A stretch of DNA of 64,000 nt. It comes from Escherichia coli (GTDB lineage: Bacteria > Pseudomonadota > Gammaproteobacteria > Enterobacterales > Enterobacteriaceae). Positions 2,494 through 43,645 of this stretch are shown piece after piece (positions within the stretch are counted from its first letter, which is position 1; every line of letters starts with the position of its first letter). The translations under genes were made by a program, and so were the position numbers. Under the pieces are notes generated by a model. The model searched no databases. It was not told where the DNA came from and was given only the letters and a program-made list of their open reading frames with translations. The stretch is taken from the NCBI RefSeq assembly GCF_048403405.1, contig NZ_CP183129.1; one strand, given 5' to 3'.

Positions 2494-2505
2494 AAATCGC
2501 CTCTG

Positions 2506-3189: not shown

Positions 3190-4059
3190 ATGGATCAGGC
3201 CGGCATTATTCGCGACCTTTTAATCTGGCTGGAAGGTCATCTGGATCAGCCCCTGTCGCTCGACAATGTAGCGGCGAAAGCAGGTTATTCCAAGTGGCAC
3301 TTACAGAGAATGTTTAAAGATGTCACTGGCCATGCTATTGGCGCGTATATTCGTGCTCGTCGTTTGTCGAAATCGGCGGTCGCACTACGCCTGACTGCGC
3401 GTCCGATTCTGGACATCGCGCTGCAATACCGCTTCGACTCTCAACAGACATTTACCCGCGCATTCAAGAAGCAGTTTGCCCAGACTCCTGCACTTTACCG
3501 CCGTTCTCCTGAATGGAGCGCCTTTGGTATTCGCCCGCCGCTACGCCTGGGTGAATTCACTATGCCAGAGCACAAATTTGTCACCCTGGAAGATACGCCG
3601 CTGATTGGTGTTACCCAGAGCTACTCCTGTTCGCTGGAGCAAATCTCTGATTTCCGCCATGAAATGCGTTATCAGTTCTGGCACGATTTTCTCGGCAACG
3701 CGCCGACCATTCCGCCGGTGCTCTACGGCCTGAATGAAACGCGTCCGAGTCAGGATAAAGACGACGAACAAGAGGTATTCTATACCACCGCGTTAGCCCA
3801 GGATCAGGCAGATGGCTATGTACTGACGGGGCATCCGGTGATGCTGCAGGGCGGCGAATATGTGATGTTTACCTATGAAGGTCTGGGAACCGGCGTGCAG
3901 GAGTTTATCCTGACGGTATACGGGACGTGCATGCCAATGCTCAACCTGACGCGCCGTAAAGATCAGGATATTGAGCGATACTACCCGGCAGAAGATGCCA
4001 AAGCGGGAGATCGCCCAATTAATCTGCGCTGTGAACTGCTGATTCCGATCCGTCGTTAA
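3190..4059 (+). CDS. rob: AraC/XylS-family transcriptional regulator Rob
   Basis: 289 aa, N-terminal AraC HTH and C-terminal GyrI-like domain; conserved position next to creA. Confidence 0.93.
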   Translation: MDQAGIIRDLLIWLEGHLDQPLSLDNVAAKAGYSKWHLQRMFKDVTGHAIGAYIRARRLSKSAVALRLTARPILDIALQYRFDSQQTFTRAFKKQFAQTPALYRRSPEWSAFGIRPPLRLGEFTMPEHKFVTLEDTPLIGVTQSYSCSLEQISDFRHEMRYQFWHDFLGNAPTIPPVLYGLNETRPSQDKDDEQEVFYTTALAQDQADGYVLTGHPVMLQGGEYVMFTYEGLGTGVQEFILTVYGTCMPMLNLTRRKDQDIERYYPAEDAKAGDRPINLRCELLIPIRR

Positions 4060-4742: not shown

Positions 4743-5605
<863 letters not shown>

Positions 5606-5635
5606 TTAGCGGGGGAAGCAAAATGCCTCCCCCGG

Positions 5636-5653
5636 TGTACTCGCTAAAGAGTA
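5636..5653. promoter_or_regulatory. trp operator palindrome in trpR promoter (autoregulation site)
   Basis: GTACTCGCTAAAGAGTAC dyad 46-63 bp upstream of trpR start; matches the known TrpR operator half-sites GTACT/AGTAC. Confidence 0.75.
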
Positions 5654-5678
5654 CGATAGCATATCATAAACGTGCGGA

Positions 5679-7616
5679 TCAGTAACGACGTCCCCATTCC
5701 GTGGCGCTCATCAATGTCGGTTTATCCCCCATGAAATAGCGGTAGTAAGCGTCATAAGCCAGCACGTTCTTCACATAACCGCGCGTCTCGGAAAACGGAA
5801 TACTCTCGACGAATGCCACTGCGTCGATACGCCCGGCGCTGTTGCCAAGCCAGGTTCGCACCCGGCCTGGTCCGGCGTTATAAGCTGCTGAGGAGAAAAT
5901 ACGGTTATTACCAAACTGCTGATAAACATATTGCAGGTAACTGGTGCCAATGTTGATGTTCGTTTCCGGATCCAGCAATTGTCCTGGGCTGCTATAACCA
6001 GGAATAGAGAACATCTTCACCGTATGGGTCGCCGTGCCCGGCATAATCTGCATCAGGCCGCTGGCCCCTACCGGTGATTTCACTTTCGGATTCCAGGCGC
6101 TCTCCTGACGGGCAATCGCCATCGCATAGCTTTGCGGGATCTCCTTCCCACTGGTGTAACGTTTGAAAAGATCGTTGTAAGCCAGCGGGAATCGCTCTTC
6201 CAGATGATCCCATAGCTTCCCGGCGATCGTTGCCTGAACGCTAAGATCCCACCATTGGTTATTGAAAGCATACCGAGCCAGTTGCGCCTGCTCTGTTTTT
6301 GACTTGCTCTTCACCAGATTGGCCCACTCGCTACGCGCGGTGTTATCGAGATTCCAGTACATCAACTCGCGCACGCGCGCCATCTCCGGCCCCTGAGTCA
6401 GCGTGCTGTCAACATTCTGCGGCGCTTTATCAATCTTCAGCTCATACTCTTCTCCGATGCGTTGTGCTGCAACCATTGGGTAGAAACCACGCTGTTGCAT
6501 GAGTTGATGCAAAATCTCTTTCGCTTCAGCTTCACGTCCGCGTTCCAGCAGTAAATCCGCCTGCCAGTAACGCCATTCATCTTTCTCTTTCGCCTCCATC
6601 GGCAAACGCGCCAGCCAGGTATTCAGGCCGCGACGATCGCCGGTGCCAAGCGCCATTCGCACACGGCGTTCAATAAGCGAAGTAGATTGCGAACGCATAA
6701 TGGCGTCATCACGCCATTTCGCCTGCTCGTCGGTGACATCGTTGCCCATCAAACGCCAGGCGACGATATCGCGCAGCTCCTGAATCTGATCTTCATTAAG
6801 CTGCTGCGCCTGGGCAAGCGACGGGATCATCAGCCGTGCATTTTCAGCATCCTGCCGCGCCACACTGGCAAACGCCACCGCCGCCATTTGACGGGTAAAA
6901 TCGGTCGCTCCGGTTGTACGCGCGAAGGTCAGTACCGTATTAGGGTTGTTCGCCAGTGAAATGATTGCCGAGGCGATAGTCTGGTAATCGGCAGGCATCT
7001 GCCCTGCCAGCACTGTTACCAGGCCAGTGTTACCCGCTTTCATCGCCAGACGGATACGCTCTAAATACGCCAGCGGATCTTGTTTACCTGACGCACGCCA
7101 GACGCTAAATAACTTGTCACAGGCGTTAGGCTGGCTCTTGCCGGTTAGCCACAGCTCTTTCGCCCCTTGCCAGGCTTCTTCACTCTGCCCGGTGTTCCAT
7201 TTCGCATAGTAGTAATTACATTGCGCTTCGGTAGTTCCGGGCTTTTCCGGGCTAAAGGCTAACAAGCCACGCCAGTCTTCACGCCGCGCCAGTTCATTGA
7301 CGAAACGAGATTGCAGCGTGCGAGCGGGAGGAAGCGTGGGGTTAGCGCGAACAAAGTTAGTGACCGTCACCGCCGGTTGATTCATCAGGTCATCGGTGAT
7401 CTGACGGTATTCCAGGTAGGGATAAAGCGGATAATCCTTCAGTCCAGGCATCATTTGTTCGACCACATCCATTTGTCGATTATCCCAGGCCTGCTTGATT
7501 TGGGCGTAGCGGCTACGCTGCTCATCCAGTGAGTCGGCTCGCGCCACGCTGCTGACCGTCAGCAGACAGACACCGGCAGCCAACAGCCGCCAGGTAACTT
7601 GTTTGGCTTTTTCCAC
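5679..7616 (-). CDS. slt: soluble lytic murein transglycosylase Slt70
   Basis: 645 aa from a GTG start (ORF track extends to 7646); signal peptide then superhelical and lysozyme-like domains. Confidence 0.92.
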   Translation of the reverse strand: MEKAKQVTWRLLAAGVCLLTVSSVARADSLDEQRSRYAQIKQAWDNRQMDVVEQMMPGLKDYPLYPYLEYRQITDDLMNQPAVTVTNFVRANPTLPPARTLQSRFVNELARREDWRGLLAFSPEKPGTTEAQCNYYYAKWNTGQSEEAWQGAKELWLTGKSQPNACDKLFSVWRASGKQDPLAYLERIRLAMKAGNTGLVTVLAGQMPADYQTIASAIISLANNPNTVLTFARTTGATDFTRQMAAVAFASVARQDAENARLMIPSLAQAQQLNEDQIQELRDIVAWRLMGNDVTDEQAKWRDDAIMRSQSTSLIERRVRMALGTGDRRGLNTWLARLPMEAKEKDEWRYWQADLLLERGREAEAKEILHQLMQQRGFYPMVAAQRIGEEYELKIDKAPQNVDSTLTQGPEMARVRELMYWNLDNTARSEWANLVKSKSKTEQAQLARYAFNNQWWDLSVQATIAGKLWDHLEERFPLAYNDLFKRYTSGKEIPQSYAMAIARQESAWNPKVKSPVGASGLMQIMPGTATHTVKMFSIPGYSSPGQLLDPETNINIGTSYLQYVYQQFGNNRIFSSAAYNAGPGRVRTWLGNSAGRIDAVAFVESIPFSETRGYVKNVLAYDAYYRYFMGDKPTLMSATEWGRRY

Positions 7617-7826
7617 AAGCGCATCCTCTAAGTGTAAATACATCAATGCAGCGTCATGCCGCGTAATAGATTTATGCTAACCAGTCATTGCCGTTTACGC
7701 CACGTTACGGACACTTTTTTACTTTTACTGCGAGGGTGATCGACCGGCTGGGATTAGATAAGGAAACAGGCTACACTTCGCCTTTGAAAACTCATCATCA
7801 CGATAAACATAGAGGCGAAGTCCAAC

Positions 7827-9494
7827 GTGGCTCAATTCGTTTATACCATGCATCGTGTCGGCAAAGTTGTTCCGACGAAACGTCATATTTTGAAAAACAT
7901 CTCTCTGAGTTTCTTCCCTGGGGCAAAAATTGGTGTCCTGGGTCTGAACGGCGCGGGTAAGTCCACCCTGCTGCGCATTATGGCGGGCATTGATAAAGAC
8001 ATCGAAGGCGAAGCGCGTCCGCAACCGGATATCAAGATTGGTTATCTGCCGCAGGAACCGCAGCTGAACCCGGAACACACCGTGCGTGAGTCCATTGAAG
8101 AAGCGGTTTCTGAAGTGGTTAACGCCCTGAAACGCCTGGATGAAGTGTATGCGCTGTACGCCGATCCGGATGCCGATTTTGACAAGCTGGCCGCTGAACA
8201 AGGCCGTCTGGAAGAGATCATTCAGGCTCACGACGGTCACAACCTGAACGTTCAGCTGGAGCGTGCGGCGGATGCGCTGCGTCTGCCGGACTGGGACGCG
8301 AAAATCGCTAACCTCTCCGGTGGTGAGCGTCGTCGCGTGGCGTTGTGCCGCCTGCTGCTGGAAAAACCAGACATGCTGCTGCTCGACGAACCGACGAACC
8401 ACCTGGATGCCGAATCCGTGGCGTGGCTGGAACGCTTCCTGCACGACTTCGAAGGCACCGTTGTGGCGATTACCCACGACCGTTACTTCCTCGATAACGT
8501 GGCGGGCTGGATCCTCGAACTGGACCGTGGTGAAGGTATTCCGTGGGAAGGTAACTACTCCTCCTGGCTGGAGCAGAAAGATCAACGTCTGGCGCAGGAA
8601 GCTTCACAAGAAGCTGCGCGTCGTAAGTCGATTGAGAAAGAGCTGGAGTGGGTACGTCAGGGGACTAAAGGCCGTCAGTCGAAAGGTAAAGCACGTCTGG
8701 CGCGTTTTGAAGAGCTGAACAGCACCGAATATCAGAAACGTAACGAAACCAACGAACTGTTTATTCCACCGGGACCGCGTCTTGGCGATAAAGTGCTGGA
8801 AGTCAACAACCTGCGTAAATCCTACGGTGATCGCCTGCTGATTGATGACCTGAGCTTCTCGATCCCGAAAGGGGCAATCGTCGGGATCATCGGTCCGAAC
8901 GGCGCGGGTAAATCGACCCTGTTCCGTATGATCTCTGGTCAGGAACAGCCGGACAGTGGCACCATCACTTTAGGTGAAACGGTGAAACTGGCATCGGTTG
9001 ATCAGTTCCGTGACTCAATGGATAACAGCAAAACCGTTTGGGAAGAAGTTTCCGGCGGGCTGGATATCATGAAAATCGGCAACACCGAGATGCCAAGCCG
9101 CGCCTACGTTGGCCGCTTTAACTTTAAAGGGGTTGATCAGGGTAAACGCGTTGGTGAACTCTCCGGCGGTGAGCGCGGTCGTCTGCATCTGGCGAAGCTG
9201 CTGCAAGTTGGCGGCAACATGCTGCTGCTCGACGAACCAACCAACGACCTGGATATCGAAACCCTGCGCGCGCTGGAAAACGCCCTGCTGGAGTTCCCGG
9301 GCTGCGCGATGGTTATCTCGCACGACCGTTGGTTCCTCGACCGTATCGCCACGCACATCCTGGACTACCAGGATGAAGGTAAAGTTGAGTTCTTCGAAGG
9401 TAACTTTACCGAGTACGAAGAGTACAAGAAACGTACGCTGGGCGCAGACGCGCTGGAGCCGAAGCGTATCAAGTACAAGCGTATTGCGAAGTAA
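7827..9494 (+). CDS. ettA: energy-dependent translational throttle EttA (ABC-F ATPase)
   Basis: 555 aa with two ABC cassettes (Walker A GLNGAGKST and GPNGAGKST, two LSGGER signatures). Confidence 0.95.
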   Translation: MAQFVYTMHRVGKVVPTKRHILKNISLSFFPGAKIGVLGLNGAGKSTLLRIMAGIDKDIEGEARPQPDIKIGYLPQEPQLNPEHTVRESIEEAVSEVVNALKRLDEVYALYADPDADFDKLAAEQGRLEEIIQAHDGHNLNVQLERAADALRLPDWDAKIANLSGGERRRVALCRLLLEKPDMLLLDEPTNHLDAESVAWLERFLHDFEGTVVAITHDRYFLDNVAGWILELDRGEGIPWEGNYSSWLEQKDQRLAQEASQEAARRKSIEKELEWVRQGTKGRQSKGKARLARFEELNSTEYQKRNETNELFIPPGPRLGDKVLEVNNLRKSYGDRLLIDDLSFSIPKGAIVGIIGPNGAGKSTLFRMISGQEQPDSGTITLGETVKLASVDQFRDSMDNSKTVWEEVSGGLDIMKIGNTEMPSRAYVGRFNFKGVDQGKRVGELSGGERGRLHLAKLLQVGGNMLLLDEPTNDLDIETLRALENALLEFPGCAMVISHDRWFLDRIATHILDYQDEGKVEFFEGNFTEYEEYKKRTLGADALEPKRIKYKRIAK

Positions 9495-11698: not shown

Positions 11699-12496
11699 AT
11701 GAAACTGGATCTGACAGGTAAAGTCGCGGTGGTCAGCGGCTCAACCTCCGGCATTGGGCAGGGTATCGCCGCCGGACTGGCAAAAGCAGGCGCAACGGTG
11801 GTTGTCGTCGGCCGTAAACAGCGCGGCGTTGATGATGCCATGGCTGCGATTGCGGCACAAACTCCCACGGCGTCACTGCGTGGCGTGGTGGCCGATCTCA
11901 GCACCGAAGACGGCGTGGCTGCGCTGATCGCTGCAGTCCCAACGGCTGATGTGCTGGTCAATAATCTGGGCATTTTTAACGATAAAGATTTCTTTAGCGT
12001 TCCGGATGATGAGTGGATGCACTTCTATAACGTCAACGTCCTCTCCGGCGTTCGTCTGGCGCGTCACTATGCGCCAGGCATGACGGAACAGGGCTGGGGG
12101 CGGATTATCTTTGTCTCGTCCGAATCCGGCGTGGCAATTCCTGGCGACATGATCAACTACGGCGTCACCAAAGCTGCGAATCTGGCGGTCTCTCATGGTC
12201 TGGCGAAACGACTGGCGGGGACCGGTGTGACCGTCAACGCCATTCTGCCAGGGCCAACCTTTACCGATGGCCTGAAAGAGATGCTGGCGGATGCCGCTGC
12301 ACAATCGGGACGCAGTGCGCGTGAACAGGCCGATGAGTTTGTTAAAACCTCACGTCCGAGCTCCATCATCCAGCGTGCGGCAGAGGTGGAAGAAGTGGCG
12401 AATCTGGCGGTTTATCTCGCGTCACCGCTTTCCTCGGCAACCACAGGGGCAGCCCTGCGCGTCGATGGCGGCGTCGTCGACACCCTGACAATGTAA
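11699..12496 (+). CDS. short-chain dehydrogenase/reductase (SDR)
   Basis: Rossmann motif VVSGSTSGIGQG near N-terminus and NNLGI motif; start chosen at MKLDLTGK (ORF track extends upstream to 11597). Confidence 0.8.
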   Translation: MKLDLTGKVAVVSGSTSGIGQGIAAGLAKAGATVVVVGRKQRGVDDAMAAIAAQTPTASLRGVVADLSTEDGVAALIAAVPTADVLVNNLGIFNDKDFFSVPDDEWMHFYNVNVLSGVRLARHYAPGMTEQGWGRIIFVSSESGVAIPGDMINYGVTKAANLAVSHGLAKRLAGTGVTVNAILPGPTFTDGLKEMLADAAAQSGRSAREQADEFVKTSRPSSIIQRAAEVEEVANLAVYLASPLSSATTGAALRVDGGVVDTLTM

Positions 12497-12521
12497 CCCT
12501 ATAAATTAAGAGAAAATTATC

Positions 12522-12938
12522 ATGGCTAAAACAACTGTATCGATCGAAATTCCGGCTTCTGCCGACGCCGTATGGCAATTGATGGGCGGCTTTGATGCGC
12601 TGCCTGACTGGCTGCCGTTCATCCCGAAAAGCGTAGTGACAGAAGGAGGTCGCGTTCGTTCGCTGACAACCTCTGACGGCGGCACTGTGGTTGAACGTCT
12701 GGAAGCGTTTGATAACCGTCAACGCAGTTATACCTATTCCATTATTCAGGCACCGTTCCCGGTGGTGGATTACCTCTCCACCATTACCGTTCATGAAACC
12801 GCCGACAGCCAGGTTTCCCGTGTGGAATGGTTCGGTGAATTCACCCCGGTGAATGTGACGAACGAAGAGGCCGAAGCGCTGTTTACCGGCATCTATCGGG
12901 ATGGTCTCAAGGCGCTAAAGGACAACTTTGTTGCCTGA
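12522..12938 (+). CDS. SRPBCC-superfamily (polyketide cyclase/Bet v1-like) small protein
   Basis: 138 aa, tight spacing after SDR gene suggests same operon; family assignment by recalled similarity only. Confidence 0.6.
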   Translation: MAKTTVSIEIPASADAVWQLMGGFDALPDWLPFIPKSVVTEGGRVRSLTTSDGGTVVERLEAFDNRQRSYTYSIIQAPFPVVDYLSTITVHETADSQVSRVEWFGEFTPVNVTNEEAEALFTGIYRDGLKALKDNFVA

Positions 12939-13095
12939 TGCGATCGACAGGCGTCGGAACGTCCGGCGTCTGATTATTAACAAAAACAGAATAGTCTATT
13001 GCCATTTGTATCATTTATGTTATCAGGCAGCAGGCGTATTCTCTCCCCATCGCGTTAATAAACGCCAAACAATTAAGACACTCTGGAATATAAAC

Positions 13096-13308
13096 ATGAA
13101 AACGATCATCGCAATTTTTACAGCTTCTCTTTTCTCTGTCGCGGCGTTTAACGCATCGGCACAAAGCGTGACAGCAACCGGTACAACACTGGATTCTGCG
13201 GAAGCGGTTATTGCGCAGAAAGCGAAAGAGATGAACGCCTCTGAATATAAAATTACCAGCGCTCGCATGGGCAATACCGTCACCATGAGCGCCGAACTGT
13301 ACAAATAA
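13096..13308 (+). CDS. small secreted DUF1471 (YhcN/BhsA-like) stress protein
   Basis: 70 aa from MKTIIAIFTASLFSVAAFNASA signal peptide; C-terminal ...KITSARMGNTVTMSAELYK typical of the family. Confidence 0.65.
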   Translation: MKTIIAIFTASLFSVAAFNASAQSVTATGTTLDSAEAVIAQKAKEMNASEYKITSARMGNTVTMSAELYK

Positions 13309-13356
13309 CCGCGCGAGGGACCCATTACGTAATTTGCTAAATATGCGCTGAATGCG

Positions 13357-13548
13357 TTGCCATTAAAAAACCGTATTGTAATGCCACCGATGACACGTTC
13401 TCGCGCGGGTGCGGGTGACGTTGCGATTGACATGATGGCGGAGTATTACGCGCAGCGCGCCAGTGCAGGACTTATCATCAGCGAAGGTACGCAAATCAGC
13501 AGAAGCGCTGCGCATAATTTTCCATGGCACGCTGATTTACTCCGGTAA
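13357..13548 (+). pseudogene. remnant of an Old-Yellow-Enzyme type NADH:flavin oxidoreductase (N-terminal ~60 codons only)
   Basis: LKNRIVMPPMTRSRAGAGDVAIDMMAEYYAQRASAGLIISEGTQIS matches OYE/NemA N-terminus; ORF truncates after 63 aa. Confidence 0.6.
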
Positions 13549-13774
13549 ATACACCAAAGCGCGCGCCGAAGCGGACTGTCAGATTTGATTGCATTTTGGC
13601 TACGCAACCGGTCAGTTGGAGTATGAAGTTGCTCACGAATAGCCTTAGCATCCGCAATTTCGTAGTGGGTCACCCGTGCAGGTTCTTTCTAATCTCAACA
13701 GCCTCTTCCAGAGAGGTTTTCAACTCATCAAAAAAACTCAATTTATACCTCGCCTTTGAGCCGTTTCGTCACGG

Positions 13775-15007
13775 TTATCTTTGCTCCCCCATCATCTCCC
13801 GCACAAGTTCCACGCAGCGCAGGAAACGGCTGTCGTAATCGTCCTCTTCAACCCGCACGAATTCGATATTGTTCTCTTCCAGCATCTCCACCAGCAAGTT
13901 CTGGAACTCTTTGCGATCCACCGAACTGCCGAGGCTGCGTAAACCATCCGCCACCCAAGGGGTGTTGTTCTCCAGCAAGATAACCAGATCAAAACGGTAT
14001 TCATCGATCAGCGCCTGCACGAACGGATGCTCCCGCCCTTCGTACTTTTTGCAGAACGCCTGGGTAGTGACAAAATCAGTGTCGATAAACGCCACTTTAT
14101 TGGCGTATTTCACTGCAAAATCAATATATTGCGCGTGTCCTAGCGCGATTTTATCGTAGTCGGAATACTGCAATGCGATCTCATCACCGCCAAGGTGTGA
14201 AAAGACATAATCGCGACCATATTCCCACGCACTGGTGGTATTGAAGATATTGGCAAGTTTGTTTACCAGGGTGGATTTACCGCTCGACTCGCCGCCAAGG
14301 ATCGCCACGGTACGCACAAAGAACGGCTTCACTTCGGTGGGAATATATTCCCAGTAGCGGAACGGGTTTTCGCGGATCTGCGCACCGCTGATACTCATAA
14401 AGGTGCGTTTCGGATCGACCAGCACCGTTTCGATCCCCAGATGTTCCATATACTGTGGCGCATCGGCTTCTTCCGAGGTGTAGATCAGGTCCGGCTGGAT
14501 CCCCTTTTCAGCCATAAACTTTTTGATGCCGTTGCTCCATACATCCCAGCCGTGCGGATATGGCTCCATGCCCTCTTCATTGAAAGCATGAATACGGATA
14601 TTTTTCTGATATTTAAAGGTTTGCAATAACCAGCGCAGACGATCCGGCACGGTGGGCTGCTGCGACATGGCGCTGTCTTCAAACAACGCGCGGTCGCGGG
14701 TATCGTCAAACCCCATAATGATATGCAGCTCGTCAACCTGGCTACAGGCGCGCTGGATAAGGTAGATATGTCCGGTATGCAGCGGGTAGAACTTACCGAA
14801 TACCACACCGATCGTTTTCTTCTGCCGGGGAAACTCAAGCCCTAAAAAACGGTGCAACGCCTCCAGCTTTTGCGCGCTGGGGCTTTTAATTTTGGCATTC
14901 AGTAACTGGCTTAAATACCCTTTGGTCATACCGCTGGCATCAGCTACCTGCTGTAGCGTGCAGCCCTGTTGCTTGATGGCAGTTTTCAGGTAATCAAATG
15001 ACGACAT
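13775..15007 (-). CDS. nadR: bifunctional NMN adenylyltransferase / NAD regulator NadR
   Basis: 410 aa from MSSFDYLKTAIKQ; HTH, nucleotidyltransferase HTGH motif and Walker A GGESSGKST. Confidence 0.93.
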   Translation of the reverse strand: MSSFDYLKTAIKQQGCTLQQVADASGMTKGYLSQLLNAKIKSPSAQKLEALHRFLGLEFPRQKKTIGVVFGKFYPLHTGHIYLIQRACSQVDELHIIMGFDDTRDRALFEDSAMSQQPTVPDRLRWLLQTFKYQKNIRIHAFNEEGMEPYPHGWDVWSNGIKKFMAEKGIQPDLIYTSEEADAPQYMEHLGIETVLVDPKRTFMSISGAQIRENPFRYWEYIPTEVKPFFVRTVAILGGESSGKSTLVNKLANIFNTTSAWEYGRDYVFSHLGGDEIALQYSDYDKIALGHAQYIDFAVKYANKVAFIDTDFVTTQAFCKKYEGREHPFVQALIDEYRFDLVILLENNTPWVADGLRSLGSSVDRKEFQNLLVEMLEENNIEFVRVEEDDYDSRFLRCVELVREMMGEQR

Positions 15008-34573: not shown

Positions 34574-35164
34574 ATGTCTCGAATTTTTGCTTACTGTCGG
34601 ATATCAACTCTGGATCAGACCACCGAAAATCAACGCCGGGAAATCGAAAGTGCAGGCTTTAAAATCAAACCTCAGCAAATAATCGAAGAACACATTAGCG
34701 GCTCAGCAGCAACCAGTGAGCGTCCTGGTTTTAACCGGTTGCTTGCTCGCCTGAAATGTGGTGATCAATTGATTGTGACAAAACTGGATCGCCTTGGTTG
34801 TAATGCAATGGATATCAGGAAAACAGTGGAACAACTGACCGAAACAGGTATCAGAGTGCATTGCTTAGCATTGGGGGGCATTGACCTGACCAGTCCAACA
34901 GGAAAAATGATGATGCAAGTAATTTCAGCAGTCGCTGAATTTGAACGAGACCTTTTACTTGAACGCACTCATTCCGGGATAGTAAGAGCCCGGGGCGCAG
35001 GGAAACGTTTTGGTCGACCACCTGTGTTAAATGAAGAACAGAAACAGGTGGTATTCGAACGAATTAAGTCAGGTGTAAGTATAAGTGCCATTGCCCGGGA
35101 ATTCAAAACCTCGCGGCAAACCATTTTAAGAGCCAAAGCAAAACTTCAGACACCTGACATATAA
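34574..35164 (+). CDS. pin: serine recombinase, Pin-type DNA invertase (PinR/PinQ-like)
   Basis: 196 aa; catalytic Ser region [15 protein letters not shown] motif, C-terminal HTH. Confidence 0.88.
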
Positions 35165-35391
35165 AAAATAATCTCGGTGTGAGATGCTTTACGTCTTCCA
35201 AGCCCCCTTCCTTGCCGTAAATGGAAAGATACATCTAATTATAGAATTTATATGTTTTACCCTACGGCAGTGCTGGCCATTCAATATCCTGTGCAGTTGA
35301 CGTATCAACACGGTTCAGCAACACCCGATACTTTTTCCAGGCTTCCAGCAACGGGGTTTCTTCCTCCGTTGCATATACAGCTCACCTTTTT

Positions 35392-35688
35392 TCACCCACG
35401 ATTAACCAACAGCCAGACCAGCAGACACGCCACCACCGGCACAGCAAAATCCATCAGGCTTGCCACATCCCACACGCGCGGATCAAAACCGCCCCACCAC
35501 GGCATGTTAATCCTCTTGCCATGCCCAAACATTTCAATCCAGCGATATTCCGCCTGGGTGTGTTCACGCGCAATGAAGAACGTACAACCGGCTATCGCCC
35601 CGTAAGCCCAGTTCCCGGTAAAAAGACCAACCAGTAGCTGCGCAGCCACAGCACAAAGCGCATGAAGGAAAGGTGTTATATCCATTTT
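35392..35688 (-). CDS. small 3-TM inner-membrane protein of unknown function (prophage accessory)
   Basis: MKMDITPFLHALCAVAAQLLVGLFTG...; three hydrophobic helices; between tail-fibre module and pin. Confidence 0.55.
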   Translation of the reverse strand, partial: KMDITPFLHALCAVAAQLLVGLFTGNWAYGAIAGCTFFIAREHTQAEYRWIEMFGHGKRINMPWWGGFDPRVWDVASLMDFAVPVVACLLVWLLVNRG

Positions 35689-35727
35689 CATCCTACCCAA
35701 TAAAACGGGGCGCTCGGCCCCTTGATA

Positions 35728-36768
35728 TTATTTAGACGCAAGCGCCGCCTCAATTGCAGATAATCTTTGTCTTAATTCTGCGTTTTCTTCTTCCAGTGCT
35801 GTTATTCTGTCGTCTGACTCTCTGGCTACCTGAACAAGCAAGCCAGTAACACCAGAATAATCTACTGTGTAATAACGTTCACCTTCTTCACCTTCCGATC
35901 CGCTTGCGCCGTCCTGATATTTCATTGCGGAACCTACAACTTCTGGGATTGCTTCCAGAGCTTCCTGTGCAATGACACCAGCATAGGGCATACCGTTTTC
36001 TTTAAGCGTGTATGTATAGCCGTTCATTTTACGGATGCGGTCGGTTGCATTATCGATCACCTGAATGTTGTCTTTCAGATCCCGGTCGGAATGCTGGTTA
36101 AATGCGGTGGCATGACATGCACCATTAACGCTTAACATATAGGTGTTATCGGTATTTTTTTGCGCATAGAACATATAAGCGCCACCATCAACACCGACTT
36201 CATAAACAACAGGACGGCTGGAGTTGCCCCACAATTGAGCAGTAACACCAGCATAAGCGGTTCCCTGTGTGTTTAATGTCATGGTTGACCCATGATTGGC
36301 ATATTTGATCTGTAATGTGTCGGTGTAATCAAATTTAATAAGCGCGTTACTTCCACGCTTGCTGTATGACATAAGGCAGTTACCCATTTTGAGGTATCCG
36401 CTGTCACCGGGAAAAATCATCGTACCGCCATAAAGGTTGGTAAAGTCCCAGCAAATGTTTGTCCCGTTATCGTTCAGGTTAAGGCGCGCCATTGCGTTAC
36501 CTGGACTGTCTATCCATTTTTTGAGGTATAGTTCGCAATACGCATCCTCAACACCTGCCGTCCTGTGAGTTGAGCGGAGTTTTCTCCCAAATATAGCTCC
36601 GCTAGTTGGCAATACCTGCTGATACCATGAAGCAGACCAGTCACCAACGATTTCATCTTTGCTGTCTACATATAATTTTGTTGCGTAGCTTCCTTGATCG
36701 TTTTTTAATTTGCTAACGTCGGATTTTAGCGTTTTGATGTCATCAGGAATTACTGTCGATGTAGCCAT
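35728..36768 (-). CDS. tail-fibre/tail-spike tip protein with C-terminal intramolecular chaperone (peptidase S74-like) domain
   Basis: 346 aa; C-terminus DLKDNIQVIDNATDRIRKMNGYTYTLKENGMPYAGVIAQEALEAIPEVV... typical of auto-cleaving chaperone domains of endosialidase and T5 pb1 type fibres. Confidence 0.7.
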   Translation of the reverse strand: MATSTVIPDDIKTLKSDVSKLKNDQGSYATKLYVDSKDEIVGDWSASWYQQVLPTSGAIFGRKLRSTHRTAGVEDAYCELYLKKWIDSPGNAMARLNLNDNGTNICWDFTNLYGGTMIFPGDSGYLKMGNCLMSYSKRGSNALIKFDYTDTLQIKYANHGSTMTLNTQGTAYAGVTAQLWGNSSRPVVYEVGVDGGAYMFYAQKNTDNTYMLSVNGACHATAFNQHSDRDLKDNIQVIDNATDRIRKMNGYTYTLKENGMPYAGVIAQEALEAIPEVVGSAMKYQDGASGSEGEEGERYYTVDYSGVTGLLVQVARESDDRITALEEENAELRQRLSAIEAALASK

Positions 36769-36777
36769 TTTTCTTCC

Positions 36778-37059
36778 TCACATCCAGCCACGAAGTTGAT
36801 GCTCAACAGCAACCACGTATTCATCGAATAATGACGATATTTGCGAATCATTAATGATGCGCACGTTTACAAAATATCCGTCTTCCTTAACACATACCGG
36901 TTCGCCATCTTCAGTCAGTTCTCCGGTTTCTTTGTACACGTTACCTATCACGTCAATAAGAATATCATCCTGCATCAACTCGTCATCATAATAGCCAATG
37001 CTCTCCATAAAGGCCGAAAAGTCGGCCCTGTCGGGAAATTTGAGTGTTAAATCTTTCAT
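36778..37059 (-). CDS. hypothetical 93-aa acidic protein between fibre genes (possible fibre assembly/adaptor)
   Basis: ORF with 1-nt overlap (ATGA) with stf stop; no recognised motif. Confidence 0.45.
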   Translation of the reverse strand: MKDLTLKFPDRADFSAFMESIGYYDDELMQDDILIDVIGNVYKETGELTEDGEPVCVKEDGYFVNVRIINDSQISSLFDEYVVAVEHQLRGWM

Positions 37060-39434
37060 TAGATTGACTCCCCCACCTGAGCATCAGTCAATGCCTTGTG
37101 CCATATTCTGAAATTCCTTACATGACCAAATAAATGACGTAACCCGGCTGTAGTCTGGCCTCCAATACGGATAATTGCGGTGTTCTGAATACAGGACCAT
37201 GTGGTTTTTGTTTCGCTGGATATACGCCCGTTACTTACTGCGCATGTAGACTGATCAGACTTTACACGCATCCCCATAACCATTTTTTCAAGTGATGCAT
37301 TTTCGTTTATCCGTCTGTTAGACCCACCAATATCGCAATAAGGAAATCCGTCGTAATCTGCTGAAGAACCGAAGCCAAGAATAATAGCCGCTCCGGTTTG
37401 ATGACCGCCGGTATCAAAAACACGCGGTGCTGCATTTGGCGTTTTATACCAGTTCTTATGTACCTCACAAAGAACCGTAAAAGGAAGATTATAAAGATTA
37501 TTCTTAATGGGAACTGTGACTATATCGCTTGCGCGGGTCGCCGCCGTCGTTCCTGATATAATAAAAGATGATACACAAGGCCCATTTTCTACTTGTGGGG
37601 TGGCCAGATAAATATAGTCACCAGATACGGTTGCCCCGCCCTGCTTAGGAGAATACTGTATCTGAGAACCTATTTTTAACTCCCCATCAATTGCCTGAAT
37701 TGTTGCCTCTGCAAAAATCCATCCGATAACTTCGTCCTTTCTGACTCTCGCTGTAATCCTTGAGGCAGCGCCGCCTGTCATATTAATTTCAAGCGTTTGT
37801 GTATCAATATACACATCACCAAGAAAAGTTGTTGCGCTACCGTCATATTTATCAAATCGGATACGCAACCTTACCTGCAGTTCTGTTTTAAAACGACATG
37901 AGGTTGTCACGTATTTATTATCGCCTGAGACATCAACTGACTTTGTTGCAGCAATTGATGCCATATTAATGGCTGAGGTTTGCCCAATCAGAGAATCGTT
38001 ACAGACAAACTTTCCATAGGTAAAACCAAAACTATCCGTCCCGGTTTCGGGAACATCCATATTTGACGATCGCCCCCAACTGGCAGGGCTTTCCGAATTG
38101 AGCATGTAGTTCGTTCTTTGCCCCTCAATAAGCAGGCCATCACGTTCAAACCGTGGCTCGTCAATGGCAGCCTCTGTCAGCACACCAGATTTATTAATAT
38201 AGGTTGCTTTCGATGCGCGTTTAAACTTAACAACCTTGTCGCCAGGCATCGTTATTTCATCATCACCAATAACAATCTTTTTATATGACGGCGAAAAGCC
38301 CGTAATCATATCCAGCGAATCGTTAAATGGTATCCACACATCAGGCAGCGGCTGTAAGACATATTTATACGGCTCCGCAGCCTGGCTTGCGTACTCTCTG
38401 GCTGCATCTTCGCTTGCTTTAGCTGCCGTCTGGCTTGCTGCCGATGCTTTCGCTGAGTTCGCAGCCGCTGTTTCGCTCACCTTTGCGTTGGTTTCACTGG
38501 TTTTTGCTGCTTTTTGACTGTTAGCTGATGCAGTGGCAGAAGCAGCAGCCGCGCTTGCAGAACCAGCTGCAGCACTCTCGCTTTCGGCTGCTGCATCCTG
38601 ACTGCTTTTCGCCGCAGTTTCGCTGGCTTTGGCATTCGTTTCGCTGGTCTTCGCTGCCGTCTGGCTGGACTTTGCGTTAGTTTCACTCGTCTTCGCTGCT
38701 TTCTGACTGTTAGCCGCAGCAGTTGCTGATCCAGCAGCTGAAGTCGCAGAACCGGCTGCCGCGCTCTCGCTTTCGGCTGCTGCATCCTGACTGCTTTTCG
38801 CCGCAGTTTCACTGGCTTTGGCATTCGTTTCGCTGGTTTTCGCTGCCGTCTGGCTGGACTTTGCGTTGGTTTCGCTCGTCTTTGCGGCTGTCTCGCTATT
38901 TTTCGCGTTGGTTTCTGATTTTTTGGCTGCTGTCGCGGAGTTTTCTGATGCAGTCTGTGAGGTCGCTGCCGCCTGTGCACTATTAGCTGCATTCGTTTCT
39001 GAGGTTTTCGCCGCGTTCTTCGATGATGCCGCTGCAGTTTCGGATTTCTTTGCCGCCGCTGCGCTCTGAGAGGCGGCTTCGGCGTTGCGTGCCGCTTCTT
39101 CCACCATTTCCTCAAAACGACGCAATGCCTCCGGCATGACATCATCTTCCGTCATGGCACCGAGAAAATCATTCAGCGTACCTGGTCTGGAACCTTCATA
39201 GACGGTAATGGTTCCGGCATGTGAAGGCGGAAAACCTTCAACAAGCAGGATAACGCTGTACTGGCCATACTCAACATCCATGCTGTAACGCCCGGCTTCA
39301 TCCGGATTTTCAGAGGCCACCGTGTTCACCAGTACCGTGGTGCTGTTACGCTTTGCCTTCAGTTGAATAGTGCAGTTCTGTATTGGTTTTCCCGCACCAT
39401 CTTTCAGCACACCTGAGATTTTTACTGCTGCCAT
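37059..39434 (-). CDS. stf: side tail fibre protein Stf (lambda-type N-terminus, divergent C-terminal receptor-binding part)
   Basis: N-terminus MAAVKISGVLKDGAGKPIQNCTIQLKAKRNSTTV... matches lambda Stf; Ala/Ser/Thr/Lys-rich repeats; C-terminal part resembles a lectin/LamG-like domain. Confidence 0.85.
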   Translation of the reverse strand: MAAVKISGVLKDGAGKPIQNCTIQLKAKRNSTTVLVNTVASENPDEAGRYSMDVEYGQYSVILLVEGFPPSHAGTITVYEGSRPGTLNDFLGAMTEDDVMPEALRRFEEMVEEAARNAEAASQSAAAAKKSETAAASSKNAAKTSETNAANSAQAAATSQTASENSATAAKKSETNAKNSETAAKTSETNAKSSQTAAKTSETNAKASETAAKSSQDAAAESESAAAGSATSAAGSATAAANSQKAAKTSETNAKSSQTAAKTSETNAKASETAAKSSQDAAAESESAAAGSASAAAASATASANSQKAAKTSETNAKVSETAAANSAKASAASQTAAKASEDAAREYASQAAEPYKYVLQPLPDVWIPFNDSLDMITGFSPSYKKIVIGDDEITMPGDKVVKFKRASKATYINKSGVLTEAAIDEPRFERDGLLIEGQRTNYMLNSESPASWGRSSNMDVPETGTDSFGFTYGKFVCNDSLIGQTSAINMASIAATKSVDVSGDNKYVTTSCRFKTELQVRLRIRFDKYDGSATTFLGDVYIDTQTLEINMTGGAASRITARVRKDEVIGWIFAEATIQAIDGELKIGSQIQYSPKQGGATVSGDYIYLATPQVENGPCVSSFIISGTTAATRASDIVTVPIKNNLYNLPFTVLCEVHKNWYKTPNAAPRVFDTGGHQTGAAIILGFGSSADYDGFPYCDIGGSNRRINENASLEKMVMGMRVKSDQSTCAVSNGRISSETKTTWSCIQNTAIIRIGGQTTAGLRHLFGHVRNFRIWHKALTDAQVGESI
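38560..38890. repeat. tandem duplication (about 186-bp unit) inside stf coding region
   Basis: Near-identical DNA blocks ...CTCGCTTTCGGCTGCTGCATCCTGACTGCTTTTCGCCGCAGTTTC... at about 38562-38700 and 38748-38890; protein repeat SETNAKSSQTAAKTSETNAKASETAAKSSQDAAAESESAAAGSA occurs twice. Confidence 0.8.
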
Positions 39435-39498
39435 ATCCACTCCACAAAAAAGCCCGCCTGAACCGGCGGGCTGTCATAACACTGTGTTACCTGGCTAA

Positions 39499-40098
39499 TC
39501 AGAATTTATAACCGACACCCACGATGAAACCGTCAGTGCGCCAGTCACCACTGCCGGAACCTTCATAAGCAAGGTCAATGGCCACGGATTCGGTCGGGTT
39601 AAACTGCACGCCAGCCCCCCACGCCAGAGACGTGTTGCTGTGGCGACCGTCATCACTTCCGGTCAGCACATCGTGCGTTTTCCCCTTGTTGTCAGTTACG
39701 CGGAGATAATCCCCGGAGAAGGTCGACACACGGCTGTAAGCCATACCCGCCATCGCATAAGCACTGAACCATTCATTCACGCGTACAGATGGCCCCGCCA
39801 TCATGCTGAACCAGCGGTTACGCACGGAATCTTCATGCCAGCGGGTATCGCTGTAATGCGTTTTTTGCTCATCTTTGGCATTGGCATAACTGAATGACGT
39901 CACCAGCCCCAGCGTGTCCGTAAATTCATAACGGTATTTCACGTTAATGCCCTTCAGGTCATCACTGCCTGGCATATCAGTATGGGTCTGAAGATACCCG
40001 GCGCTTAGTGTGGACTGATGCTCTGCTGCGCTCGCTGGCGTACCAGCGGCAACCAGCCAGACTACTGCGGACAGAATAACAGCACATAATTTACGCAT
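39499..40098 (-). CDS. lom: Lom outer-membrane protein (Ail/Lom family)
   Basis: 199 aa, signal peptide, beta-barrel ending ...GFIVGVGYKF; position between J and stf as in lambda. Confidence 0.88.
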   Translation of the reverse strand: MRKLCAVILSAVVWLVAAGTPASAAEHQSTLSAGYLQTHTDMPGSDDLKGINVKYRYEFTDTLGLVTSFSYANAKDEQKTHYSDTRWHEDSVRNRWFSMMAGPSVRVNEWFSAYAMAGMAYSRVSTFSGDYLRVTDNKGKTHDVLTGSDDGRHSNTSLAWGAGVQFNPTESVAIDLAYEGSGSGDWRTDGFIVGVGYKF

Positions 40099-40165
40099 AA
40101 TTACCTCTCGCTTTTCTGCAATAAAAAAGGCGTCATTTCTGACGCCCGTATTGGGGTTATAAAAT

Positions 40166-43100
40166 TCAGCTGATACTGATGCCTGCGGTGGCTTTCTTCA
40201 TCACCACAACCAGCAAATCGCTGATACTTGCTGTGGGATACCAGTCATTTACCAGCCATGCTGACACCGAAAACTCCAGCGTCATGTGACCGTGACCGGC
40301 AGGCATATCAATAACGCCACTGTAAATCAGCGTATTATCCAGCGCGGTACGGTTATAAATTTCAGCACCGTTTTTCCGCACTATCAGACGGCATGAGGAG
40401 TAAATATCAGTATGCTCTCTCTCATGTTTAGCGCCGCTGAATGCCACCGCCGGAATAACAATCTGCCGGTCAAACGGCTGATCGTCATAAATCCTGACGG
40501 TAATGGTCCCTGATGGCCACCGTTCCGGTGCACGGGAGTCCCGGGGGAAAGCTTTGCCCACTGTTTTAACGAGATCGCCTTCAATCTGGTTCGCGGACAG
40601 TTTTCCCAGAACCCGGCAGTTCTCGTTAATCGTGACGTTGTTGAGCGTCCCGGAGTTCGCATTCACGTTACCGCTGATATCGGCATTTTTCGCCGTCAGC
40701 CGCCCGTCCGGTGTCAGGGAAAATGCCGGAGGATTACCGCCGCTGGTAATGGTGGGAGCCGTCAGATATTTCAGGAACACTTCATTCATAAATATCTGAT
40801 CGCCCTGACCAACAAACATCGGCTTTGTGTTGCCATTCGCAGGATTAACCATCGCAATCCTGTCCGCCGCCAGCAGCACCTGACTCTGCATACCGTCAGG
40901 AGTATTCTCAATACCGGCACCAATACCCGCGATATAAAGGCGTCCGTCCTGCATCTGCTGCAGCTTCACAGCCCACATGCTGTTCAGGTTATTATTTGTA
41001 TCAACCTGAACCTTCTGTATCTGCTGAATTACCGCACTCTGGTCTTCCAGTTTATTATTGACGGTCTGCGTGATTTCATTGCTGACATCCGTAATGGACG
41101 TCCTGATTTCAGCCAGGTCAGGCGCAAGCTGACCGTTATCAATCTGCGTCCACAGCTCCTGAGCCAGATGGCTTTTCCCTATCTCGCCTTTGAAAAAATC
41201 CAGATAGCCGGATGCATCATCACTCGGCTGGCCAACAGCCTCCACAAATGCCGATTTGCCAACGGTGTTCACACTGCGGATGTAAAAATAATAATCATGG
41301 CCCGGTTTGATATTGATACTGGTGGCTATCCAGTACAGCGCCGTGCCAAGATAGCGGGCTGTGGTTTCAACCTGCCTGATATCGGTAATCCGCGTTTCCG
41401 AGAACCAGAACTCAAACTGTACCGTCGGATCATAAACCGCAAGATGCGGCGTGGCAGTTATCTGAAAATAGCCCGGCGTCAGCTCAATCCGCGACGGCGC
41501 TGCCGGTGCGGCAATCCGGAACGATACCGATGCCGGATCGCCCTGCTGTCCCCACGCATTTACCGCCCGGACCGTCAGCGTGTAACGCCCCAGCGCCAGT
41601 TGCCTGAAGCGGTATGTGGTTTCCGTCGTCCTGGCCGTGCTGACCAGCCGCTCACTGCCGTCGTCCGCTGCCACGGTCAGGCGAAGCAGGAAGCTCACGC
41701 CCTTCACCACCTTCGGCGTGTCCCAGCGGGCCAGTACCTGATACTCCCCGCTGTCTGCGGTGACTTCGGCAGTCAGGTGCTGCACCGCTGGCGGCGTGAC
41801 ACCATTCACCGTGCCGCTCTGGTCACCGTCAAAGTGCGCCCCGTTATCCACGATGGCTTCTTTCTCCGGTACATGCTGCACGGCGGTGATGGCATACGTG
41901 CCATCGTCGTTCTCACGGATACTCACACAGCGGAACAGGCGCTGGCGCAGCGTCGGCAGCTTCAGCCCCCATACGCTGTATTCAGCAACACTGTCAGGAA
42001 CACGGCTCACTTTTACCTTCACGCCGTCGGTGACGGACTGAACCTCCACGCTGACCGGATTGCCACTTCCGTCAACCAGGCTTATCAGCGTGGTACCGGA
42101 GGATGGCAGCGTGATTTCACGGTCGAGCGTCAGCGTCCGGGTCTGGCTGTTCACCGCCAGTACACGACCACCGGTGCTGATACCGGCATAGTCATCATCA
42201 CAGATTTCAATAACATCGCCCGGTACATGGCGAAGCCCTTCTGCGCCGACGCTGAAATCCACGGTCTGCGTTTCCAGCAGTTCCGTTTTAATCAGCCACA
42301 GCCCGGCGCGGTGTGCCTGCCCCCGGCTGGTACAGCCAAAGGCATCCATCTTCGTGACGTTACGACCGTAACGGGCAATGGCCTGCGTGTCCTCCACAAG
42401 CTCTGTCGCCGTCTCCCAGCCGTTGTTCGGGTCAATCCAGTTCACCTCAACGGCATTATGGCGGTCCTTCAGGGCGCTGAAGCTGTAGCGGAACGGCGCG
42501 CCATCATCCGGCATCACCACATTACTGCGGTTATAGGTCCACACCTTATCCGACGGTCGGTCCTGCACGAATGTCAGCGTCTGCCCGTTCCATACCGGCA
42601 TACAGCGCATCGCCGAGCAGAAATCACTGAGCACATCCCACGCCTTGCGCTGTGTGGCCAGGTACGCATTACAGGTGATGCGCGGCTCCGTGCCGCCAAA
42701 ACCATCCGGCACCGACTGGTCGCAATACTGGCTGATGACATACAGCGCCCATTTATCCACATCTGCCGCACCAAGACGTTTCCCCATGCCGTAGCGCGGA
42801 TGGGTCAGCATATCCCACAGACACCAGGCCATGTTGTTGCTGTATGCTGGCTTAAACGTTCCGTCCCAGATACCGCTGTATTGCCGCGTCTGCGGGTTAT
42901 AGTTCGACGGCACCTGCAGAATGCGCCCGCGAAGATGATAATTACGGCTCACCTGCTGGCTGCCGAACTGCTCCGAATCCACCTGCACGCCGACCAGTGC
43001 CGTGTTCGGGTAGCACTGTTTCACATCGATGATTTCGGTGTATGACGACCAGAGCGTTTTGTTCTGCAGCTGGTCTGTGGTGCTGTCCGGCGTCATTCTG

Positions 43101-43645
43101 CGCATCCGGATATTAAACGGGCGCGGCGGCAGGTTATCCACCACCACCGAGGCCAGATACTGTGAGGTGGTTTTGCCCTTAATGGTGATGTCTTTTTCCG
43201 TCACCCAGCCACCATTACGCTGTATCTGAACCAGCAGGCGAACTTCCGACAGATTCCGGTCCCCCTTTGAGGTGGTTTCCACCAGTGCCTGCACACCGAA
43301 GGTAAAGCGCAGACGGTCGATGTTTGCAGACGTGATGGTCCGGGTAATCGGCGTGTCGTACTTCACTTCCGTACCCAGCACCGTCTCGGAGCCGGAGGAT
43401 TCAAATCCCTCCGGCGGTGTCTGCTCCTGCTCACCTGCCCGGAACACCACCGTGACACCGGAGATATTGGTATTCCCCTCACTGTCCAGCACTGGCGTAC
43501 TGTTCAGCAGCACACTTTTTAATCCGTCCACCGGACCTTCAACCGGCCCTTCACTGATGGCGTCTATCACGCTCAGCATCTGGGATGATTTCAGGTTGTC
43601 CTTCGCTTCGCGCGGGGTATGCCCCTTACTGCTGCCTTTACCCAT
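40166..43645 (-). CDS. J: tail tip/host-specificity protein J
   Basis: 1159 aa, N-terminus [20 protein letters not shown]... as lambda J; C-terminal ~150 aa appears divergent from my recollection of lambda. Confidence 0.92.

Follow-up and report, generated by a model that had tools for sequence, protein, structure and literature searches.

The locus downstream of the tail gene J in this Escherichia coli prophage raises the question of what kind of receptor-binding apparatus is encoded when a side tail fibre begins as the lambda Stf protein does and ends as something else. The locus, which lies within the window (the whole 64,000-nucleotide stretch of DNA that was analysed), is the host-recognition fibre of a lambda-like E. 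coli prophage in which the lambda tip and helper gene have been swapped for a three-gene cassette. The reading preferred here, to which we assign a probability of about 0.72, is that cassette exchange has produced a side (lateral) tail fibre in two parts, a proximal fibre and a docked tip that cleaves itself.

Three intact open reading frames are tightly packed on the minus strand downstream of J (40166-43645, minus strand) and lom (39499-40098, minus strand), encoding an Stf-like protein, a 93-aa protein and a 346-aa protein; each belongs to a PHROG family that covers its full length. The Stf-like gene (37059-39434, minus strand; PHROG 1419, “tail protein”) comes next after J and lom among the genes of the late tail operon, the position of a lambda-type stf gene. 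Its translation is 791 residues long from the ATG at 39434, while a GTG at 39440 would give an open reading frame of 793 residues (37059-39440). The ATG is the likelier start, since GGAG is found 5 nt upstream of it and PGAP uses the same start, and the end coordinate of 39434 given in the earlier note is therefore right. The gene for the 93-aa protein (36778-37059, minus strand; PHROG 1361, a family of no known function) starts at an ATG that shares bases with the stop codon of Stf (TAATG), and a gap of 9 nt separates its own stop from the start of the distal fibre gene for the 346-aa protein (35728-36768, minus strand; PHROG 4563, “tail fiber protein”), which has its own ribosome-binding region. 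A terminator-like hairpin (35707-35721) precedes the gene for a 102-aa membrane protein (35392-35700, minus strand; PHROG 1443) that closes the module in lambdoid loci; this gene is found both with and without a distal fibre gene, and its product is probably not part of the fibre itself.

The lambda-type N-terminus that had been proposed for the Stf-like protein is borne out by a Pfam search, in which PF08400 (phage_tail_N) covers residues 5-134 in the numbering of the 793-aa form (39039-39428, minus strand) with E=5.9e-67, and by BLASTP, which finds 61% identity between residues 5-275 and lambda Stf orf-401. The anchor runs into a repeat shaft (residues ~108-357; 38370-39119, minus strand) which is homologous to the shaft of lambda Stf and is made of 7- and 14-residue repeats rich in Ala, Ser, Thr, Glu and Lys, with 94% of its residues being A, S, T, E, K, N or Q. 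The repeat periods at the DNA level are 21, 42 and 189 nt, and the shaft contains a tandem duplication of 189 nt at 38481-38893. Stf alleles of 727/728 aa are commoner than the 793-aa form.

The similarity to lambda ends at a sharp boundary. From residue ~361 onwards, BLASTP finds no similarity between the Stf-like protein and the HxH-rich lambda tip protein orf-314; the latter has 8 HxH motifs and a His content of 5.1%, compared with no HxH motif and 1.2% His in the C-terminal 433 residues of the Stf-like protein. The expectation that the C-terminal third of the protein would not be of lambda type thus holds as to its origin, but not as to its extent, because the foreign part makes up ~55% of the protein. 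This part is a mobile cassette (residues 361-793; 37062-38360, minus strand) composed of a conserved junction or hub region (361-446) and two further domains, of which the first is a lectin-like beta-sandwich (~447-622) and the other is beta-rich (~650-793). The lectin-like end that had been suspected is recovered in the form of ConA-like lectin/CBM folds related to the head-spike fibre of the gene transfer agent RcGTA: residues 437-637 (37530-38132, minus strand) match NCBIfam NF048003 with 49 bits against a cut-off of 36, and PDB 6TB9 (Rcc01080) is matched with E=7e-7. Judged from the genes, this head-spike-type domain is not placed at a capsid, since it is joined in frame to the anchor of a tail fibre within a tail operon. 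The predicted structure of the cassette has a mean pLDDT of 68, which is moderate confidence, with residues 1-85 below 50. The Stf-like protein joins a lambda anchor and repeat shaft to a cassette of ~430 aa which is common to several phage families.

That this junction arose by modular exchange, as had been suggested, is supported by three features: the sharpness of the junction, the occurrence of the cassette on unrelated anchors, and the debris that lies downstream. In alignments built from IMG/VR loci and phage records (listings of homologous proteins consist mostly of near-identical E. coli entries), the cassette has one sharp start at the motif QPLPDVW, residue ~362, and the sequence 3' of this motif is 64-97% identical to fibres which have unrelated N-terminal anchors, in Drexlerviridae (tunus), Nonagvirus (ESCO3) and the T5-like phage IrisVonRoten. 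The lectin cassette and the small gene also occur together in T1-like, T5-like, Nonagvirus and rV5-like phages. No intact tfa gene is present immediately 3' of the Stf-like gene, and the neighbouring genes have no match to Tfa; a remnant of about 36-37 C-terminal codons (35262-35375, minus strand), which PGAP annotates as an incomplete pseudogene and which is 89% identical to lambda Tfa residues 156-191, lies ~1.7 kb downstream. The substitution of tfa by the 93-aa reading frame and the 346-aa protein had been correctly recognized. An orphan serine DNA invertase of Pin type (34574-35164, plus strand; PHROG 125, “DNA invertase”, E=6.6e-69) is what remains of an invertible fibre module that has been displaced, and is of contextual value only. 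The adjoining invertase suggested an active invertible fibre segment, but this was rejected because a search near the invertase gave no match to Din-type crossover sites, because no suitable inverted repeats were found, and because Tfa is a stub.

The 346-aa protein would be the second element of the fibre. Pfam detects Peptidase_S74 (PF13884) at residues 227-278 with E=1.5e-13, followed by a coiled-coil-like tail, and the C-terminal domain aligns to the C-terminus of S16 gp37 (PDB 6F45). Residues 227-346 (35731-36090, minus strand) are the intramolecular chaperone domain, with predicted self-cleavage between His226 and Ser227. The pair Ser227/Lys232, in the sequence S227-D-R-D-L-K232, has the same spacing as the pair Ser1264/Lys1269 of the T5 protein pb1, for which the self-cleavage mechanism has been described (PMC4690869), and the motif S-D-x-x-L-K is retained in the homologues from ESCO3, JenP2, IrisVonRoten and ESCO40. 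The proposal of a self-cleaving chaperone of the endosialidase/T5 type accordingly gains support from both the family match and the catalytic pair. At the other end of the protein, residues 1-20 (36709-36768, minus strand; MATSTVIPDDIKTLKSDVSK) form a predicted docking peptide with the motif M[AVT]TxTxIPxDIxxLK, which reads MATSTVIPDDIKTLK in the window and MVTKTVIPTDITKLK in IrisVonRoten Gp24, and which is conserved in tunus, ESCO3, IrisVonRoten Gp24, JenP2 and ESCO40.

The 93-aa protein that lies between the two fibre genes has a predicted alpha/beta fold (AF2 pLDDT 87.8), has no match in Pfam or NCBIfam, and yielded no informative relative by sequence or by fold. Its gene is syntenic with the cassette in all of the complete loci examined, and the identity of the small protein follows that of the hub segments (rho 0.83 and 0.67) more closely than that of the lectin domains (rho 0.26-0.53), although both sets of correlations ignore kinship and the linkage of adjacent genes. 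This protein would most likely act on the conserved hub as a dedicated assembly factor or cap. It is less likely to be a structural adaptor which stays in the virion as the socket for the distal fibre, instead of acting as a transient chaperone. The type of small protein tracks residues 2-4 of the distal fibre, with MKDLTLKF types accompanying MATSTVIP and MRDITLRF types accompanying MVTKTVIP, the latter pairing holding even where the rest of the 346-aa body is alike, and an adaptor would also fit the co-variation with the hub segments as opposed to the lectin domains. Linkage of adjacent genes could, however, yield equal co-variation, and the small gene is kept in loci from which the distal fibre gene is absent (phage 21 and about 20 IMG/VR loci), which an adaptor role alone cannot account for. 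A more general and equally tentative extension is that the hub (Stf residues 361-446 together with the last ~30 residues) and the 93-aa protein might form a universal socket for any tip that bears the ~15-residue M[AVT]TxTxIPxDIxxLK peptide. Four kinds of tip are seen with this peptide: the self-cleaving 346-aa protein, a coiled-coil protein of ~234 aa, a T-shaped protein of ~580 aa and one which is Tfa-dependent.

The earlier note described the 346-aa protein as a separate fibre tip. A tip with a chaperone is indeed what is found, but its independence is doubtful, and the sequence comparison and the analogy with IrisVonRoten indicate that the protein is probably a distal piece docked on the Stf cassette. 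It is unlikely that it forms instead an independent short fibre or spike on the tail tip (attached, for example, to J or to the tip complex), so that the virion would have two kinds of appendage, even though the protein has a gene and a ribosome-binding region to itself and many phages have multiple independent fibres (PMC11990801). The N-terminal motif is found in lambdoid, T1-like, T5-like and Nonagvirus phages, the tails of which are unrelated, and the element which these have in common is the cassette with the small gene, downstream of which the motif is always found; the cassette lies upstream of the motif-bearing distal fibre in 79 of the 79 loci with enough upstream sequence. This synteny is joined by the published model of IrisVonRoten, in which the proximal fibre Gp22 has a galectin-like domain protruding from it and carries the distal fibre Gp24 with its chaperone (PMC11990801), and these two lines of evidence are the basis for inferring attachment to the proximal fibre. 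A comparison with phage 21 raised the idea that docking takes place at a variable stretch (residues ~680-755) of the second beta-sandwich. This was rejected because many IMG/VR loci have that stretch in the form found in the window and no distal fibre gene, while others have a distal fibre gene and a different form of the stretch.

It is unlikely that the cassette degrades glycans as an enzyme (a jelly-roll lyase or glycanase), in which case the fibre would work as a depolymerase tailspike and not as a passive binder. Finally, it is highly improbable that the prophage has decayed here to a non-functional remnant whose reading frames make no fibre. Although an orphan invertase and a piece of a tfa pseudogene adjoin the module and PGAP calls the Stf gene a pseudogene in one strain, the three reading frames are intact and about 97% identical to the copies in isolated phages, the genes are under purifying selection (median dN/dS 0.44 and 0.18 for the 93-aa and 346-aa genes, respectively), and the split made by PGAP falls on DNA that is 100% identical to the intact reading frame.

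With the tip docked on the proximal fibre, assembly and function can be pictured as follows. The Stf-like protein would trimerize, with its N-terminal domain anchoring the fibre to the tail tip as in lambda and its heptad-repeat shaft forming a coiled coil, the length of which may vary between alleles through the 63-aa duplication; in LtfA, a T5-like fibre, the anchor leads into a coiled coil of three helices (PMC10713586). The beta-sandwiches of the cassette, being of lectin/CBM type, would bind a surface glycan such as O-antigen or capsule, and surface glycans are known to be bound by lambda-like side fibres (PMC11990801; PMC12312913). Since phage 21-type loci keep the cassette and small gene without a distal fibre gene, this binding may also operate alone. 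The 346-aa protein is expected to trimerize with the aid of its C-terminal chaperone and then to cut itself between His226 and Ser227, leaving a mature tip of 226 aa that would insert by its N-terminal peptide into the end of the proximal fibre as a second, exchangeable receptor-binding element. The complete fibre would make a reversible first contact with the cell surface, after which J would bind the terminal receptor.

Of 5426 complete E. coli genomes, 374 contain the module at a coverage of ≥80%, and four isolated phages (2G7b, Tritos, HannyBb and PhiR63_1) have it at about 97% identity; a literature search on 2G7b, Tritos, HannyBb and PhiR63 brought up papers on other subjects only, and one on the ECOR13 prophage found no fibre analysis. 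The suggestion that an alignment might reveal a standard, widely conserved stf-tfa pair is thus half right, in that the module is standard and widely conserved but is not an stf-tfa pair. The fibre module is genuine and was correctly read, yet it is common and in large part already described, and as a whole the finding confirms known biology and opens no new question; the one part that known biology does not account for is the ~90-aa protein, which is always present, has a confident fold and has no known relative. At the level of sequence, the locus appears to be a clean example of how temperate coliphages alter primary receptor specificity by cassette swaps at fixed junctions, with one cassette moving between lambdoid phages, which are temperate, and T1-like, T5-like, Nonagvirus and rV5-like phages, which are virulent. 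The QPLPDVW junction and the short docking peptide could serve as ready splice points when lambda-based particles are to be given new host ranges by engineering, and the universal socket, if true, would amount to a cross-family plug-and-play host-range system centred on a previously unrecognised small structural protein.

Comparison with known systems places each part of this fibre. The Stf and Tfa of lambda (Ur-lambda) occupy the same place after J and lom and have a homologous anchor and shaft, but end in the HxH-rich tip (orf-314) with Tfa, where the window has the lectin-like cassette, the 93-aa protein and the self-cleaving fibre. The phage 21-type Stf, also found in Lambda_2G7a and many prophages, combines a lambda-type anchor with a cassette that is 71-72% identical over its full length and near-identical across the first ~300 residues, and downstream of it come a ~92-aa homologue and the gene for the same membrane protein; it differs in having no distal fibre gene and in the last ~135 residues of the cassette, which are a different allele. 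T5 pb1 and the K1F endosialidase likewise have a C-terminal Peptidase_S74 domain with a Ser...Lys pair (i, i+5) that folds the trimer and is then cut off, but there the chaperone is part of one long anchor-bearing polypeptide, whereas here it is on a short plug-in protein. RcGTA Rcc01080 (PDB 6TB9) is homologous in sequence over ~245 residues (E=7e-7), but it decorates a capsid, while the domain in the window ends a tail fibre. In the branched lateral fibres of the T5-like phage DT57C, which serve O-antigen recognition, LtfB is attached via LtfA and not to the tail (PMC10713586); this likeness is drawn from the published descriptions, which include no small intervening protein. IrisVonRoten (Bas32) has the same three-gene order, with Gp22 as proximal, Gp23 as small and Gp24 as distal protein (Humolli et al. 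2025, PMC11990801), so that a ~90-aa gene lies between the proximal and distal fibre genes in both phages. The Gp22 cassette is 63-64% identical over 433 aa and shares the junction, Gp23 is 38-39% identical to the 93-aa protein, and Gp24 has the same N-terminal docking motif and C-terminal intramolecular chaperone as the 346-aa protein. IrisVonRoten differs in being virulent where the phage in the window is temperate, in having a T5-type and not a lambda-type anchor, and in its distal fibre, which is a T-shaped protein of 574 aa with two receptor-binding domains in place of the single 346-aa tip.

The fibre module belongs to a lambdoid prophage that adjoins prfC in the E. coli chromosome, and its DNA is 100% identical in strain EC28 and several other genomes. 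It follows the late tail operon genes J (40166-43645, 1159 aa) and lom (39499-40098, 199 aa) on the minus strand, and consists of three genes on that strand: the Stf-like gene (37059-39440, 793 aa if a GTG start is used), the small 93-aa gene at 36778-37059 that the earlier note had listed, and the gene of the 346-aa fibre protein (35728-36768). The most likely Stf start is instead the ATG at 39434, which lies 5 nt 3' of a GGAG, is the start picked by PGAP, agrees with the end coordinate in the earlier note, and would give a product of 791 aa. The ATG of the 93-aa gene overlaps the Stf stop codon (TAATG) and only 9 nt separate its own stop from the start of the 346-aa gene, so the three genes form a single tightly coupled unit. 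Strong terminator-like hairpins at 39451-39472 and 40128-40147 flank lom directly before the Stf start, and Stf expression would therefore need read-through by antiterminated late transcription. A further terminator-like hairpin (35707-35721) precedes a minus-strand gene for a 102-aa membrane protein (35392-35700; PHROG 1443), which ends the fibre module in lambdoid loci with or without a distal fibre gene and which may serve lysogenic conversion or exclusion.

The Stf-like protein begins, as had been proposed from the sequence, with a lambda-type anchor: residues 5-134 match Pfam phage_tail_N (E=5.9e-67), and residues 5-275 are 61% identical to lambda orf-401. The distal part is likewise non-lambda as claimed, since no part of the protein is similar to lambda orf-314, which forms the distal half of lambda Stf; nor does the 346-aa protein resemble orf-314. 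The Gly/His-rich character attributed to the lambda tip is real in lambda (8 HxH motifs, 5.1% His) and missing here (0 HxH, 1.2% His). The anchor is followed by a shaft (residues ~108-357) which is 94% Ala/Ser/Thr/Glu/Lys/Asn/Gln and consists of repeats of 7 and 14 residues, visible in the DNA as periodicities of 21 and 42 nt. Part of the shaft (38481-38893) is a tandem duplication of 189 nt (63 aa), by which this allele is ~65 aa longer than the common form; most alleles in the database have 727/728 aa, and shaft length is therefore polymorphic. Long ORFs in other frames overlap the shaft on both strands (38236-39145; for example 222 aa at 38477-39145), but these were rejected as genes, since they arise from the repetitive coding of the Ala/Ser/Thr-rich shaft. 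In EC28 (12067-14442 of that record), PGAP splits the intact and identical Stf ORF into a "pseudogene" and a "phage head spike fiber domain-containing protein", apparently through an error of annotation.

A sharp boundary at residue ~362 (QPLPDVW) marks the start of a C-terminal cassette of about 430 aa. Beyond it the sequence shares 64-97% identity with the fibres of Nonagvirus ESCO3, the Drexlerviridae phage tunus and the T5-like IrisVonRoten, whose N-termini have no relation to one another; the cassette also recurs, at 71% identity, in phage 21, where the N-terminus is again lambda-type. In the cassette, residues 437-637 exceed the cut-off of the NCBIfam family GTA_spike_fiber (49 versus 36 bits) and can be aligned to Rcc01080, the head-spike fibre of RcGTA (PDB 6TB9, E=7e-7). 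The cassette is also found, at 95% identity, fused to PF03406 and PF12571 N-termini (P0045, P0046, P0105 and P0115), so that its exchange reaches further anchor types.

Traces of what the cassette displaced are present beside it. An orphan Pin-type serine invertase lies at 34574-35164 on the plus strand, and between it and the membrane protein gene is a minus-strand 37-aa Tfa fragment with 89% identity to residues 156-191, the C-terminus, of lambda Tfa. Neither crossover sites nor matching inverted repeats were found in the invertase region. The Tfa fragment and an invertase devoid of sites together mark this stretch (34574-35375) as the remains of an invertible fibre module that has been displaced; judging from these sequence remnants, it was evidently a classical stf-tfa-invertase arrangement that the cassette overwrote. 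The modular exchange suggested in the earlier note is thus supported.

The third gene encodes a protein with a chaperone-type C-terminus, as had been suspected: residues 227-278 match Peptidase_S74 ("chaperone of endosialidase", E=1.5e-13), and the intramolecular chaperone occupies the last 120 residues. The segment S227-D-R-D-L-K232 has the Ser...Lys spacing of Ser1264/Lys1269 in T5 pb1, in which the trimer folds and the bond before the serine is then cut, unmasking the receptor-binding tip (PMC4690869); by this analogy the predicted mature form would have 226 aa. Residues 157-219 bear a weak likeness to T4 gp34 repeats; the C-terminus can be aligned to gp37 of phage S16. The best-conserved stretch among alleles of the protein is its N-terminal ~20 residues (MATSTVIPDDIKTLKSDVSK), where 4.7% of allele positions differ. 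The docking motif at this N-terminus, M[AVT]TxTxIPxDIxxLK, also starts the third gene of ESCO3, tunus, IrisVonRoten (Gp24), JenP2 and ESCO40, the bodies of whose proteins are wholly different. The proposal of a separate, chaperone-bearing fibre tip holds as regards the chaperone; the protein itself is best interpreted as a distal fibre that is docked, rather than as a separate tip.

The association of the motif with the cassette was evaluated in both directions. Among 80 IMG/VR loci retrieved by the cassette, every one that reaches past the end of the fibre gene has a homologue of ~90 aa directly after it, followed either by a docking-motif gene or, in phage 21-type lambdoid loci, directly by the membrane protein gene. 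Another 80 loci were retrieved by the docking motif alone; upstream sequence was sufficient in 79, and in all 79 the cassette precedes the motif gene, separated from it by a ~90-aa ORF. In 12 of them the small protein diverged too far to be picked up by the first tblastn screen, as was checked for one (L127). In phage 21 (5752-8452) and Lambda_2G7a (5451-8275), sitABCD, an iron/manganese transporter cargo operon of phage 21-type phages, comes directly after the cassette, small gene and membrane gene. At least four classes of tip have the docking N-terminus: proteins of 346 aa with an intramolecular chaperone, coiled-coil proteins of ~234 aa with a chaperone-like end, T-shaped proteins of ~560-580 aa, and a single 340-aa tip that has no chaperone and precedes a Tfa-like gene. 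This last tip, in the IMG/VR locus L040 downstream of 2372-3670, has the docking N-terminus MATVTTIPADITNLK, and the Tfa-like gene after it encodes 175 aa; chaperone-dependent tips therefore use the docking peptide too.

No match to the 93-aa protein exists among Pfam or NCBIfam families. In 99 distinct pairs of cassette and small protein, small-protein identity tracks that of the first 85 cassette residues (Spearman rho 0.83) and the last 32 (0.67) much more closely than that of the lectin-like domains between them (0.26-0.53), all values being uncorrected for phylogeny and linkage; the best-tracking segment is also the one farthest from the small gene. Residues 2-4 of the distal fibre likewise vary with the type of small protein, even among 346-aa proteins that otherwise match. 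These correlations fit, as a lead and not a proof, a conserved hub of cassette ends and small protein surrounding lectin domains that are swapped independently.

The module is of a widespread and already catalogued kind. Among 5426 complete E. coli genomes, 374 contain the whole 3.9 kb at ≥80% coverage; the 346-aa gene is found at the same coverage in 511 genomes, and cassette and small gene are detectable in 1495. In four isolated temperate phages (2G7b, Tritos, HannyBb and PhiR63_1) the module is about 97% identical, and all three proteins have full-length PHROGs families (1419, 1361 and 4563). In phage records, tblastn detects the cassette in 230 and the small protein in 183, the matched phages being lambdoid, Drexlerviridae, Dhillonvirus, Queuovirinae, T5-like and rV5-like. 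Only the small protein and the possible universal socket might repay experiments.

The observation in the earlier note is confirmed by these comparisons and its interpretation supported. Lambda-like side fibres that have been studied bind surface glycans, the O16 O-antigen in the case of Ur-lambda (PMC11990801) and the LPS core in that of Gifsy-1 (PMC12312913). Siphovirus lateral fibres share only the far N-terminus and can consist of one, two or more proteins (Maffei et al. 2021, PMC8594841), and the branched T5-like fibres of DT57C, LtfA/LtfB, are a functional analogue (PMC10713586). Among described systems, the nearest is the lateral fibre of IrisVonRoten, in which Gp24 is a chaperone-bearing distal fibre attached to the proximal fibre (Humolli et al., PMC11990801); the module described here is its lambdoid counterpart, with a distal fibre that is shorter and single-tip.
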